DNA of 64,000 nucleotides from Chitinophaga pinensis (GTDB taxonomy: Bacteria > Bacteroidota > Bacteroidia > NS11-12g > UBA955): contig CAMAQS010000003.1 in the NCBI GenBank assembly GCA_945860565.1, forward strand, positions 1,933-65,932, read 5' to 3'. A program made the translations under genes and the position numbers. Numbering within the stretch: position 1 is the stretch's first letter; every line of letters starts with the position of its first letter. This document shows, piece after piece, positions 56,324 through 57,058 of this stretch. Under the pieces are notes generated by a model, which was not told where the DNA came from, made no database searches, and saw only the letters and a list, made by a program, of their open reading frames with translations.

Positions 56324-56395
56324 CGCGGGATGGAGCAGTGGTAGCTCGTCGGGCTCATAACCCGAAGGTCACAGGTTCGAGTCCTGTTCCCGCTA
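56324..56395 (+). tRNA. initiator tRNA-fMet (anticodon CAT)
   Basis: CGCGGGATGGAGCAG...TCGGGCTCATAACCCGA...ACAGGTTCGAGTCCTGT TCCCGCTA. It has three consecutive G:C pairs at the bottom of the anticodon stem and a 1:72 mismatch (C1/U72), both initiator hallmarks. Confidence 0.9.
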
Positions 56396-56406
56396 CTAAG
56401 TGAATC

Positions 56407-56437
56407 AAAAAAGTCGTCAGTAATGGCGACTTTTTTT
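56407..56437 (+). terminator. terminator-like hairpin after tRNA-fMet
   Basis: A-run, AGTCG, 10-nt loop, CGACT, T7 run. The same element recurs at 56866..56897. Confidence 0.4.
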
Positions 56438-56442
56438 GTTTT

Positions 56443-56493
56443 AGGCTCATATCCGTCAGCCGACGGACACAGGTTCGAGTCCTGTTCCCGCTA
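56443..56493 (+). repeat. truncated tRNA-fMet 3'-half module, copy 1
   Basis: AGGCTCATA (anticodon loop including CAT), then hairpin TCCGTC-AGCC-GACGGA, then an exact T arm and 3' acceptor strand CACAGGTTCGAGTCCTGTTCCCGCTA. No 5' half. Confidence 0.85.
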
Positions 56494-56558
56494 GTAAGTC
56501 CGAAAAAGACTTCAGAAATGGCACCCTTTTTGTTTAATCTTTTCGATCAATTAATAAT

Positions 56559-56858
56559 ATGTTCGTTACATACGCCTTGTACTCTGCTATTTTCGACAAA
56601 ATCTATATCGGTTACACTTCAGACTTAATCGATAGATTTCATTCTCATAATCGTTTTGCAAACAAAGGATATACCACGAAATTTAGACCTTGGATTGTGG
56701 TACATGTCGAATTTTTTGACACTAAAGCTCAAGCTATGGCAAGCGAAAAACAACTTAAATCTAGACAAGGCCGATTATTCATTAGGAAGCAGATTCAGAT
56801 CCTAGGCTCATATCCGTCAGCTGACGGGCACAGGTTCGAGTCCTGTTCCCGCTACTAA
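56559..56858 (+). CDS. GIY-YIG nuclease family protein (small, URI domain)
   Basis: YALYSAIFDKIYIGYTSDLIDRFHSHN...W.VVHVEFF.TKAQAMASEKQLK matches the GIY-(x10)-YIG / R / E core. The last ~18 codons are read from tRNA-derived sequence. Confidence 0.8.
   Translation: MFVTYALYSAIFDKIYIGYTSDLIDRFHSHNRFANKGYTTKFRPWIVVHVEFFDTKAQAMASEKQLKSRQGRLFIRKQIQILGSYPSADGHRFESCSRY
56804..56854 (+). repeat. truncated tRNA-fMet 3'-half module, copy 2
   Basis: Differs from copy 1 at 2 of 51 nt. Its hairpin is the perfect palindrome CCGTCAGCTGACGG. Confidence 0.85.
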
Positions 56859-56865
56859 GTGAATC

Positions 56866-56897
56866 AAAATAGTCGTCAGTAATGGCGACTTTTTTTT
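56866..56897 (+). terminator. second copy of the terminator-like hairpin
   Basis: AGTCG...CGACT followed by a T8 run. Part of the ~90-bp direct repeat. Confidence 0.35.
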
Positions 56898-56902
56898 GTT
56901 TT

Positions 56903-56958
56903 AGGCTCATGTCCGTCAGTTGAAGAACACGGTTAAATGTGACTCCCCGTTCCGGCTA
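56903..56958 (+). repeat. truncated tRNA-fMet 3'-half module, copy 3 (degenerate)
   Basis: AGGCTCATGTCCGTCAGTTGAAGAACACGGTT...CCGTTCCGGCTA. The 5' part is conserved and the T-arm region has decayed. Confidence 0.6.
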
Positions 56959-57058
56959 CCACGAAAAAGTCTATTCCAACCGTATTCTTCAGTTCATTTC
57001 GATACACAACCTAATAATCCTACCTTCATCGAGGAAATTTGTAGGTCTCCGTAAATTT

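Follow-up and report, generated by a model that had tools for sequence, protein, structure and literature searches.

The tandem array of tRNA-derived fragments that follows the initiator tRNA gene in the window (the whole stretch of DNA analysed, 64 kb) is, in our reading, a site occupied by a selfish cassette family of homing type, which lacks a recombinase and for which tRNA-derived sequence serves as portable homology arms. We hold this reading with moderate confidence. The cassette is small, probably selfish and, so far as can be judged, probably undescribed. Its habitat was observed in many genomes: in Bacteroidota and related phyla, members of the family lie immediately 3' of tRNA(CAU) genes.

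Organisation of the array downstream of the initiator tRNA gene

All features of the array lie on the forward strand. ARAGORN identified two tRNA genes, tRNA-Glu(UUC) (56247..56319; Rfam tRNA, 54.7 bits), which lies just upstream and is of interest only as context, and an intact initiator tRNA(CAU) (56324..56396; Rfam, 66.7 bits), which is the host gene of the cassette. A tRNA-Glu gene is also present at the five unoccupied sites described below (L203-L207). The CAU tRNA has the initiator features of a C1xU72 mismatch and an anticodon stem with three G-C pairs, and its sequence is identical to that of the tRNA at four of the unoccupied sites (L203-L206). It is followed by its terminator, T0 (56397..56441), for which the terminator scan reported a stem at 56407-56436 and a T run. 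At the unoccupied sites, too, the tRNA is followed by this terminator; T0 is host-derived and is duplicated with every unit.

Module 1 (56442..56493) is a solo module, that is, a unit without its ORF. It consists of TAGGCTCATA, corresponding to tRNA nt ~29-37, the hairpin TCCGTCAGCCGACGGA (56452-56467), and a T arm and 3' acceptor strand (56468-56493). After it come a decayed terminator copy, T1, and a short leader to the ATG (together 56494..56558). T1 is 66% identical to T0, has lost the stem and did not score in the terminator scan. The ORF of the GIY-YIG nuclease (56559..56858; 99 aa; Pfam PF01541) lies between modules 1 and 2. Module 2 (56803..56854) consists of TAGGCTCATA, the hairpin TCCGTCAGCTGACGGG (56813-56828), and a T arm and 3' acceptor strand identical to those of the canonical tRNA, and is followed by terminator copy T2 (56855..56901; stem at 56871-56890 and a T run in the terminator scan). 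Module 3 (56902..56958) is decayed and retains TAGGCTCATG, the hairpin remnant TCCGTCAGTTGAAGAA, and a degraded T arm and acceptor strand. Counted as units, the array comprises three in tandem, of which only the second is intact: the first is without its ORF and the third is a decayed solo module.

The repeats were located exactly. The 64 kb contain the 22-mer GGTTCGAGTCCTGTTCCCGCTA exactly three times (at 56374, 56472 and 56833), and TAGGCTCATATCCGTCAG occurs at 56442, 56803 and, with one mismatch, 56902; neither had any match in shuffled sequence. Direct reading showed 2 differences in 51 nt between modules 1 and 2. A repeat of 79 nt, which spans the T arm to the terminator (56364-56442 and 56823-56901), is 94% identical between its two copies, compared with 66% for the copy after module 1. 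ARAGORN, Rfam and the repeat positions agree with the original prediction of an intact initiator tRNA followed by three ~51-nt tRNA-derived modules, the third decayed, with related terminator spacers of which the one after copy 1 is degraded. The description of the modules as tRNA 3' halves was correct for nt ~29-37, the T arm and the acceptor strand but missed the 16-nt hairpin between them.

The GIY-YIG ORF is the sole ORF of the unit. No recombinase was found within about 5 kb among the neighbouring genes (DUF1501, DUF1800, a biotin-ligase-like gene, rsfS, a membrane protein, an esterase-like gene, era and GH16), as had been predicted for integrases, transposases and recombinases. A permissive Rfam scan of 55500-57800 returned the two tRNAs only, with no family for the module and no intron family.

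The nuclease is predicted to be a bare GIY-YIG domain

The ORF matched Pfam GIY-YIG (PF01541) over residues 2-71 with an E value of 1.2e-15 and a score of 58 bits (cut-off 22.6). The predicted 99-aa GIY-YIG nuclease is thereby upheld as to family, but not as to length. The true protein is predicted to be about 80 aa (56559-56798), with residues 81-99, the last 19 of the ORF, arising by read-through translation of module 2; the stop is a TAA after the tRNA-like 3' end of that module. This assignment follows from the homologues, mostly 79-88 aa, whose tails lie in differing reading frames and are tRNA modules translated in those frames.

Residues Y5, Y16, R26, H30 and E63 are invariant in 53 sequences. 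The AlphaFold model (pLDDT 96.3) has strands at residues 2-9, 14-20 and 46-53 and helices at 23-33 and 56-67, and the protein combines the conserved catalytic residues with the beta-beta-alpha-alpha-beta-alpha core of the GIY-YIG superfamily. The best fold matches were Slx1 (TM 0.66-0.71) and At-HIGLE (TM 0.71), both at probability 1.0, with UPF0213 also matched; I-TevI (TM 0.49) and UvrC (TM 0.58) were weaker, at E > 0.5. By sequence, the closest relative was 1ywl (E 1e-4), followed by weaker matches to 1zg2 and 7wme. Together, the sequence and the model suggest a bare SLX1/UPF0213-type GIY-YIG domain rather than one of the I-TevI or UvrC type. The ~80-aa protein is wholly catalytic domain and has no DNA-binding domain.

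Most comparisons between genomes gave dN/dS of 0.05-0.15, and one closely related pair gave 0.25; synonymous sites were close to saturation. These values point to a functional protein under purifying selection. Profile searches with NCBIfam and PADLOC gave chance-level matches only (E 0.16; E 0.023), and an exact-sequence look-up of the window's nuclease protein returned no record. The ATG lies so close behind the terminator T run that a promoter has no space, which suggests that the nuclease may be expressed by read-through from the tRNA promoter.

The cassette is tied to tRNA(CAU) genes

The unit has the order tRNA terminator, ~80-aa nuclease ORF, hairpin module, follows closely on the 3' side of a CAU tRNA and shares its strand. 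The original prediction had proposed a search for further copies beside tRNA genes. With the protein as the query, 80 genome loci with 106 nuclease-gene matches were retrieved, and all 80 had such copies at tRNA(CAU) genes. A perfect GC-rich 6-bp hairpin was present within 130 nt downstream of 77 of the 91 evaluable nuclease copies. Upstream, a canonical CAU tRNA ended within 150 nt of 46 of 87 copies, at a median gap of 52.5 nt, and a loose pattern match placed a T-loop-like motif in the same 150 nt for 71 of the 87. The normal tRNAs in the 80 loci were CAU only (65 genes), plus three hairpin-bearing variants that ARAGORN left untyped. Tandem repeats of 2-3 units were seen in at least 12 of the 80. 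When metagenomes were scanned with the hairpin and T-loop pattern only, 61 tRNA-type matches were recovered, and a nuclease gene adjoined 40 of the 50 that were evaluable.

Related nucleases are found at the initiator tRNA or at the second CAU tRNA, depending on the lineage, and a few divergent copies of the cassette adjoin tRNA-Asn. This use of two CAU tRNAs and tRNA-Asn copies across lineages supports target switching. Hairpin-bearing tRNA copies also occur upstream of the tRNA. The branching of the nuclease tree is in rough agreement with taxonomy. The CTCATA+hairpin pattern had no exact match in 2.9 million viral contigs, and tblastn found no match in the INPHARED phage or PLSDB plasmid collections. 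The taxonomy-like tree and the absence from these phage and plasmid collections suggest that spread between genomes may be rare.

No description of the element was found in the searchable literature, which agrees with the remark in the original prediction that no element class of this architecture was familiar. The lone GIY-YIG mention in a Bacteroidetes LexA paper refers to a different protein.

A model for spread by homing

Homing would proceed by cleavage of an empty site followed by copying of the cassette into it. The unit that moves would comprise a copy of the host terminator, the ~80-aa nuclease gene and a disabled, hairpin-substituted partial tRNA copy. The nuclease would break DNA in or beside a CAU tRNA gene, and the break would be repaired by homologous recombination off an occupied copy. 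The intact tRNA and its terminator would serve as the left arm, and the T arm, acceptor strand and terminator of the module as the right arm. Such portable arms would suit any closely similar tRNA(CAU) gene. What the two CAU tRNAs have in common is exactly the segment that the hairpin replaces (TCATAACCCnnAGGTC), and a hairpin-substituted module without it would escape re-cutting. The restored tRNA could be cut again, in which case out-of-register repair would generate tandem arrays, and subsequent deletion of the ORF would leave solo modules.

Some observations count against this reading. Known GIY-YIG homing endonucleases need a DNA-binding domain for site specificity, and the cassette protein has none. 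In addition, the intact tRNA beside the nuclease gene retains the proposed target.

A conserved hairpin replaces part of the tRNA

The modules are chimeras in which nt ~29-37 of the local tRNA are followed by a 16-nt GC hairpin and then by that tRNA's own T arm and acceptor strand. In the window, the stretch of 16 nt that separates GGCTCATA from the T arm (56452-56467 and 56813-56828) is no part of the tRNA sequence and folds into a conserved 6-bp hairpin. It stands in place of tRNA nt 38-47, which make up the 3' strand of the anticodon stem and the variable loop. Across the family the hairpin measures 15-16 nt. Among 152 distinct modules, the stem positions are at least 98% conserved and pair 5 shows compensatory changes (C-G in 104, T-A in 45, G-C in 1 and non-Watson-Crick in 2). 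When modules were extracted with no constraint on the insert, 84 of the 94 non-canonical inserts were closed by a perfect 5-8 bp stem. Selection acts on the hairpin, and its stem is nearly invariant. A mere immunity scar is inadequate as an account of it, given the nearly invariant sequence, the compensatory pair and the occurrence of hairpins in the D arm and T loop; this too counts against the homing reading.

The rest of the module follows the local tRNA. The T-stem 5' strand was that of the same-locus tRNA in every module with a recognisable T arm, and 36 of 81 modules were identical to the local tRNA over 26 nt. Local tRNA sequence separates a foreign ORF from a foreign hairpin, for which the homing reading has to assume that gene conversion followed insertion or that the cassette was long inherited vertically at the site. 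Similar hairpins, in either orientation, were found in the D arm and T loop of pseudo-tRNAs at five loci (L069, L073, L074, L079 and L094). Full-length tRNA copies with the hairpin alone were seen at L006, L066 and L079, and at L161 a hairpin lies within a tRNA-Lys in a contig that contains no nuclease gene. In 451 kb of collected sequence, at least 120 of 126 strict hairpins were inside tRNA arrays, and none was found outside the array in the 64-kb window.

Three ideas about the hairpin were rejected. A palindromic break footprint of the P-nucleotide type does not fit a hairpin that is conserved across taxa and lacks complementarity to its flanks. Loops of both 3 and 4 nt, often asymmetric, do not fit a palindrome bound by a dimer on duplex DNA. 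The hairpin type does not co-vary with the nuclease clade, as each of the types TCCGTC and TCCGCC occurs in scattered places on the tree.

The conserved hairpin at tRNA position 37/38, with its sisters in the D and T loops, may indicate structure-directed DNA cleavage or a hairpin-insertion process. One possibility, which we put forward tentatively and regard as somewhat doubtful, is a new class of mobile element. It would pair a minimal SLX1-like nuclease with a cognate DNA hairpin in tRNA loops, mainly at position 37/38, that marks or creates the site of action, and its 350-bp unit would spread through structure-directed cleavage and host recombination, with no transposase or integrase. If true, this would provide the first function for the widespread UPF0213 family.

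It is unlikely, in our estimation, that the hairpin itself is the substrate, as a cruciform or single-stranded hairpin recognised and cut by the SLX1-like nuclease. Short-patch gene conversion, or an unspecified insertion process, would then first place hairpins in tRNA genes, and cutting at such a hairpin would trigger copying of the nuclease gene, by a logic like that of REP/RAYT or IS200/IS605 with GIY-YIG in place of HUH. Such an explanation overlaps with homing, from which it differs solely in what is cut. It would account for the conserved and compensated stem, the perfect stems that close most unconstrained inserts, the D-arm and T-loop hairpins, the hairpin-only tRNA copies and the tRNA-Lys hairpin; the 3- and 4-nt loops also fit a hairpin better than a duplex dimer site, and the nearest fold, Slx1, is that of a branched-DNA-specific nuclease. 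However, cutting in its own flank is of no obvious help to the spread of the element, a unit with one hairpin offers no second end, and strand transfer is not known for GIY-YIG enzymes. The confinement of the hairpins to tRNA arrays also differs from a genome-wide repeat such as REP.

The module could instead act in RNA, a role compatible with homing but one that we judge improbable. The hairpin and T-arm-like end would stabilise or process the 3' end of a read-through nuclease mRNA, with the DNA repeats as a by-product. In line with this, the nuclease ORF always abuts or overlaps the module, the stop codon is often supplied by the module, and a terminator follows each module. The segment 56780-56900 also has a more stable fold than shuffled sequence (z = -3.4), for which the terminator is largely responsible. 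The modules alone, however, fold no better than shuffled sequence (z = -1.06) and have no Rfam match, which lends no support to an autonomous structured RNA. Left unexplained by this role are the tracking of the local tRNA by the T arm, the hairpin copies upstream of the tRNA and the hairpins in either orientation.

Unoccupied sites and turnover of units

The search for empty sites that the original prediction had proposed recovered five syntenic loci (L203-L207) from at least three related genomes. All have the identical arrangement rsfS-tRNA-Glu-tRNA-fMet-terminator, with no cassette and unrelated DNA after the terminator. The shared synteny is BPL-rsfS-tRNA-Glu-tRNA-fMet-terminator, preceded by DUF1800 in L203-L206 only. 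The nuclease gene, lying between host genes, is thus polymorphic for presence and absence at a conserved site, both in L203-L207 and in the window compared with locus L081.

The flanks of L081 are 95% identical to those of the window, but its unit content differs and its modules have decayed differently. In the interval of module 3, L081 contains a 365-nt nuclease pseudogene plus module that is missing from the window. Its module 1 is decayed, and the window's decayed module 3 resembles it; on these sequences, gene conversion probably renewed module 1 in the lineage to which the window belongs. At the position of what in the window is only a solo module, L081 has a second, decayed nuclease gene; solo modules can therefore be regarded as remnants of whole units. 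Nuclease pseudogenes and solo modules were also found at other loci. The comparative loci, the empty sites and L081 all fit the prediction that a small GIY-YIG cassette without a recombinase inserted repeatedly at the initiator tRNA gene.

These observations bear on a vertically inherited, host-beneficial locus, which we consider very unlikely. The nuclease would serve the tRNA(CAU) locus, for example through recombination that tunes tRNA gene dosage, and the arrays would form by unequal crossing-over without mobility between sites. The strong purifying selection on the protein, the broadly taxonomic nuclease tree and the absence of the cassette from phage and plasmid collections are consistent with this, as are the two intact tRNA copies beside the cassette at L032, L065, L055, L064 and L071; SegB-driven tRNA amplification, moreover, benefits phage T6. 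Against a host benefit, syntenic sites in related genomes are unoccupied, pseudogenes of the nuclease and solo modules are common, the cassette has switched from one tRNA species to another, and the amplified tRNA copies are disabled rather than functional.

Finally, tandem initiator-tRNA genes do occur in the phylum (L032 and L065) and the arrays are often at contig ends, but a decaying tRNA-fMet tandem array secondarily invaded by an unrelated nuclease gene, the alternative offered by the original prediction, or an assembly artefact is extremely improbable: random decay would not put the same hairpin at nt 38-47 in more than 150 distinct modules from many families across the phylum, the nuclease gene and module are co-retrieved whichever is the query, no hairpin-free decayed tRNA array with the same nuclease gene was seen among the loci retrieved, and the arrangement is present in isolate genomes, in complete chromosomes and, colinear at 95% identity, in an independent assembly.

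Significance

The cassette gives a subfamily of UPF0213/SLX1-like GIY-YIG proteins a fixed genomic context, which makes its function testable. An essential and highly conserved gene, that of the initiator tRNA, emerges as the phylum-wide habitat of a ~350-bp, one-protein, recombinase-less element that is probably selfish. Portable homology arms taken from the target gene would explain its entry into tRNA(CAU) genes similar enough to recombine. The arrays break short-read assemblies and cause mis-called tRNA-tailed proteins and pseudo-tRNA calls in Bacteroidota genomes. If the nuclease is structure-specific, the nuclease-hairpin pair could be a compact tool.

Comparison with known systems

Cyanobacterial tRNA-fMet genes contain a self-splicing group I intron that carries the gene for I-Ssp6803I, a PD-(D/E)XK nuclease. 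Like I-Ssp6803I, the cassette nuclease would be a selfish nuclease aimed at the anticodon region of initiator-tRNA genes. Unlike the intron, the cassette leaves its host tRNA uninterrupted and no intron RNA was detected; a group I intron in tRNA-fMet was rejected on the uninterrupted canonical tRNA and the lack of an Rfam intron family in 55500-57800.

Short, conserved GC-rich hairpins are also known from REP/RAYT and IS200/IS605, which use an HUH enzyme, and from the GC-cluster palindromes of yeast mitochondria. As in these systems, the cassette hairpin is linked to one nuclease gene and also exists as gene-free copies. In contrast to REP/RAYT and IS200/IS605, the cassette has a GIY-YIG enzyme, its hairpins are confined to tRNA-derived arrays and it has no defined ends. 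No HUH (Y1) transposase is present, which argues against membership of either group.

The cassette resembles tRNA-targeting integrative elements in its insertion at a tRNA gene, in the intact tRNA and in the partial 3' repeat at the distal side. Those elements use tyrosine integrases, whereas the cassette has no integrase, is about 350 bp long and forms tandem units; its distal repeat is hairpin-modified and the host terminator is duplicated as well. An integrase-mediated island was rejected, as neither the unit nor its neighbours encode a tyrosine or serine integrase.

At the protein level, SLX1 and UPF0213 (EF2693, 1ywl; BH0048, 1zg2) are nearest in both sequence and fold and have the same catalytic residues. 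A RING domain and a requirement for SLX4 set SLX1 apart. Searched literature assigned no function to stand-alone UPF0213/SLX1-like GIY-YIG proteins; other UPF0213 proteins lack a fixed genomic context, whereas the cassette subfamily is tied to tRNA(CAU) genes and a specific hairpin.

SegB of T-even phages is a GIY-YIG homing endonuclease located in a tRNA gene cluster (PMC2330249), and it drives tandem tRNA-segB amplification through recombination (PMC13096335). The cassette nuclease gene, like segB, is not intronic, lies between genes next to tRNA genes and is unaccompanied by a recombinase. In both cases a tRNA-derived part and a nuclease gene form tandem units, which for SegB spread and amplify through host or phage homologous recombination. 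The cassette differs in being chromosomal in Bacteroidota and in not being found in phage collections. Seg proteins and I-TevI exceed 200 aa and contain DNA-binding modules, whereas the cassette protein is a bare 80-aa domain of the SLX1/UPF0213 clade. Unlike that of SegB, cleavage by the cassette nuclease is putative, and each cassette unit ends in a disabled tRNA copy that carries the conserved hairpin.

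The tRNA array and its hairpin

In the window, tRNA-Glu (56247-56319) is followed by a tRNA(CAU) with initiator features (56324-56396) and by three copies of a ~51-nt partial tRNA module at 56442-56493 (module 1), 56803-56854 (module 2) and 56902-56958 (module 3, decayed). Intact terminators were scored at 56407-56436 and 56871-56890, and the sole ORF inside the array is that of the GIY-YIG nuclease (56559-56858). The 64 kb contain exactly three copies of the T-arm/acceptor 22-mer and also three of the module's 5' 18-mer; neither was found in shuffled sequence. Of their 51 nt, modules 1 and 2 share all but two. 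A 79-nt repeat running from the T arm to the terminator is 94% identical between the 3' flank of the canonical tRNA and that of module 2, and its copy behind module 1 is 66% identical. The original prediction had described the tRNAs, three modules, repeat, terminators and ORF correctly but had overlooked a hairpin: in the window modules, GGCTCATA is separated from the T arm by 16 nt of non-tRNA sequence, which form a 6-bp hairpin (TCCGTC-loop-GACGGA) in place of tRNA nt 38-47, the anticodon-stem 3' strand and variable loop.

The terminator copy behind module 1 (56494-56540) lies directly 5' of the intact nuclease gene and no longer has a stem: it reads GACTTCAGAAATGGCACC, against GTCGTCAGTAATGGCGAC in the terminator of the intact initiator tRNA. 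This loss could permit read-through into the nuclease ORF. The corresponding terminator is intact at most other loci. Two genes beside the array are probably shorter than their longest ORFs: rsfS (55774-56193), probably 124 aa with its start at 55819, and a membrane protein with no Pfam matches (56939-58252); its counterpart in L081, a close relative, has a called length of 382 aa, which would place the window start near 57104.

Unit architecture across genomes

The nuclease scan, with one genome per species, retrieved 80 loci from among at least 529 matching stretches encoding relatives. Their hosts are Flavobacteriales, Cytophagales, Chitinophagales, Sphingobacteriales, Bacteroidales and members of two neighbouring phyla. 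Throughout, the unit order is CAU tRNA, its rho-independent terminator, ATG, ~80-aa ORF and module, with all parts on the strand of the tRNA. The ATG lies 0-25 nt beyond the terminator T run, which suggests low read-through expression. The module begins 10-35 nt past the conserved ~80-residue domain and often overlaps the 3' end of the called ORF, whose stop codon it often supplies (D-stem TAG, hairpin-loop TGA, or TAA past the acceptor end). A perfect GC-rich hairpin was found within 130 nt downstream in 77 of 91 evaluable gene copies, and a canonical CAU tRNA ends within 150 nt upstream in 46 of 87 (median gap 52.5 nt); most copies without a near CAU tRNA are preceded by another module of a tandem array. 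Two to three tandem units occur at 12 or more loci, and the only normal tRNA species in the 80 loci is CAU (65 genes). Scanning metagenomes by hairpin and T loop alone yielded 61 matches of tRNA type; of the 50 evaluable ones, 40 have the nuclease gene next to them. The module belongs with the nuclease gene, and this association holds from either query.

The cassette lies within ~600 nt of a contig end in ~25 of the 80 genome loci, and runs of N fall inside the array at L007 (~2915-2925) and L040 (upstream of 2498). Short-read assemblies seem to break at these arrays.

The nuclease

Most homologues of the ORF span 79-88 aa. Unusual tails, GSYPSADGRQFESGPRY or GLISVS for example, are present in many database entries, and some entries have similar N-terminal extensions; these tails are the module translated in differing reading frames. 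Since the tails in public entries are translated pseudo-tRNA/tRNA sequence, they are ORF-calling artefacts and the real protein is ~80 aa. The protein proper stops near residue 80, and what is conserved beyond it is the nucleotide sequence. N- or C-terminal tails reading GSYPSADG(H/R)RFES(C/G)PRY, GLISVS or AHNPKVARSSRVPAT were seen in the window (56799-56858) and in proteins P0003-P0006, P0029, P0038, P0042, P0065 and P0117.

The nuclease is a bare catalytic domain in which Y5, Y16, R26, H30 and E63 are invariant among homologues. Its dN/dS was 0.05-0.15 in most between-genome comparisons, and copies in tandem at one locus are nearly identical. The AlphaFold model was confident (pLDDT 96.3), and its best PDB matches were Slx1 (TM 0.66-0.71), At-HIGLE and UPF0213 proteins, with I-TevI and UvrC much weaker. 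The nuclease is matched by ~187 clusters (50% identity) at E <= 1e-10; it has no family in NCBIfam or PADLOC and no matches in phage and plasmid collections. Among viral contigs, no exact match to the module was found.

Conservation of the hairpin

The tRNA-derived parts of the module are local; the hairpin is not. Wherever a recognisable T arm is present, the T stem 3' of the hairpin has the sequence of the tRNA at the same locus. Identity to this tRNA over 26 nt was found in 36 of 81 modules, most others having extra hairpins or truncations, and the left part, GGGCTCATA or GGATTCATA, likewise tracks the local tRNA. The tRNA-derived part has no fixed 5' limit and extends over anything from a full tRNA (L006) to 9 nt. 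Among 152 distinct modules, chosen for complementarity, five of the six hairpin stem pairs are at least 98% invariant, and pair 5 is C-G in 104, T-A in 45, G-C in one and non-Watson-Crick in two. Because of this choice, the extraction was repeated, this time leaving the insert unconstrained. The outcome was bimodal, with 46 canonical 10-nt segments (ACCCnnAGGy) and 94 other inserts, 84 of which are closed by a perfect 5-8 bp stem. The loops are variable, and 3 or 4 nt are possible. Between genomes, synonymous substitution in the neighbouring ORF approaches saturation (pS 0.6-0.9). Selection therefore maintains the hairpin in both sequence and pairing, and, conserved in these two respects, it is more than a scar.

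Sister hairpins were found in pseudo-tRNAs, where they replace the D arm or lie in the D loop or T loop; with the main site they cover all three cloverleaf loops. At L069 the sister hairpin is identical in sequence to the anticodon-site copy, at L073 it has the loop in reverse-complement orientation, and at L074 it carries compensatory stem changes. Sister-hairpin families include TCCGCC..GGCGGA, TTCGCC..GGCGAA, TCCCGAT..ATCGGGA and TACGATAG/CTATCGTA. Hairpin-only full-length tRNA copies occur at L006, L066 and L079. Further hairpins lie just 3' of the main hairpin at L003, L020, L063, L073, L074, L075, L077, L078 and L080, and further GC-rich palindromic hairpins at L079 (2040-2330), L056 (~2290-2345), L069 (~2300-2330) and L094 (1250-1560).

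Tandem units were also seen upstream of the canonical tRNA at L034 (2080-2390), L079 (2040-2380), L053 (1900-2110), L094 (1250-1570) and L007 (1820-1900). They comprise a leader, tRNA nt 1-37, the hairpin, the T-stem 5' strand and part of the T loop; they break off within the T loop and so lack the 3' end, mirroring the downstream modules, which are truncated at the 5' end. The L034 junction has CAAGTTC microhomology. At L038 (2243 and 2813), the stem of the tRNA terminator is itself TCCGCC/GGCGGA, followed by a T run, and at L054 (2797) the hairpin directly follows a tRNA-like 3' end, so the hairpin sequence is not strictly limited to position 37/38. On a metagenome contig (L161, Ga0247740_1004045, 1849-1930), a tRNA-Lys(UUU) in an array of 15 tRNA genes bears TCCGCCAACTGGCGGA at position 37/38; these 5.8 kb contain no GIY-YIG gene, and the hairpin reflects either spread without the nuclease gene or coincidence. 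In the 451 kb of sequence examined, at least 120 of 126 strict hairpin copies lie inside tRNA arrays, and none occurs in the window outside the array. Across this sequence the hairpin is therefore not a dispersed REP-like repeat.

Unoccupied sites, turnover and target switching

Five syntenic unoccupied sites (L203-L207) were found via RsfS orthologues (71-74% identity). L203-L206 share the order DUF1800-BPL-rsfS-tRNA-Glu-tRNA-fMet, and their tRNA-fMet is identical to that of the window. L207 shares BPL-rsfS-tRNA-Glu-tRNA-fMet, with other genes upstream of BPL, a 43-nt spacer between the tRNAs and a tRNA-fMet whose T stem departs from that of the window by one base pair. At all five sites the same terminator stands behind tRNA-fMet, followed by unrelated DNA with neither module nor nuclease gene. 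The terminator is therefore host sequence, duplicated along with each unit.

Over the stretch from rsfS up to and including the second terminator, L081 shares 95% identity with the window. Past this point L081 has a decayed second nuclease gene and module (365 nt), whereas the window has module 3 alone. Module 1 of L081 is decayed and similar to window module 3, whereas in the window modules 1 and 2 are nearly identical. It follows that solo modules are units minus the ORF, and that units undergo conversion and rearrangement on a short time scale. Nuclease pseudogenes also occur at L020, L051, L032 and L015.

Related nucleases are found at either the initiator tRNA or a second CAU tRNA, with several switches, and divergent copies at tRNA-Asn (L066, L082). 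At all of these targets the hairpin comes after nucleotide 37 (38 in L082). Modules on other tRNAs were seen at L066 (1-90 and 2756-2840), L082 (two units, 424-nt period) and L129 (~1-60); some are on tRNA-Asn(GUU), adjoining divergent nuclease genes (45-59% identity), and one is possibly tRNA-Lys(CUU)-based. Here too, nucleotide 37 or 38 precedes the hairpin.

Discussion

These facts fit a selfish, recombinase-less cassette that relies on host recombination. Target-derived sequence flanks the nuclease gene on both sides: to its left lie the tRNA and its terminator, to its right the T arm, the acceptor strand and a terminator copy. If a similar tRNA(CAU) gene is broken, it could therefore be repaired from the occupied copy and the nuclease gene copied along. 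Since both CAU target tRNAs share TCATAACCCnnAGGTC, the segment absent from the module, recognition or cleavage would most naturally take place there, and a module without it would be immune to cutting. A restored tRNA would be re-cut, and out-of-register repair would then give tandem arrays; phage SegB does the same with tRNA-segB units (PMC13096335). For the cassette, we infer each of these steps: break, repair-copying, immunity and re-cutting. The main rival explanation is that the hairpin itself may be the structure recognised by the enzyme, for which the Slx1-like fold counts; it departs from the favoured explanation solely in what is cut.

We rate the cassette as a homing-type selfish nuclease gene. 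A full-text literature search, incomplete in coverage, found no description of it, and there is a real chance that the pairing of nuclease and hairpin is something new. Known homing endonucleases carry DNA-binding modules, whereas the cassette nuclease is a bare 80-aa domain without them. Among the closest known systems are the SegB-type free-standing GIY-YIG homing endonucleases beside phage tRNA genes, from which the cassette differs in having no DNA-binding domain. Also among the closest are tRNA-targeting integrative elements, which likewise leave a partial tRNA repeat, and hairpin-dependent elements such as REP/RAYT; the cassette has neither the integrase of the former nor the HUH enzyme of the latter.
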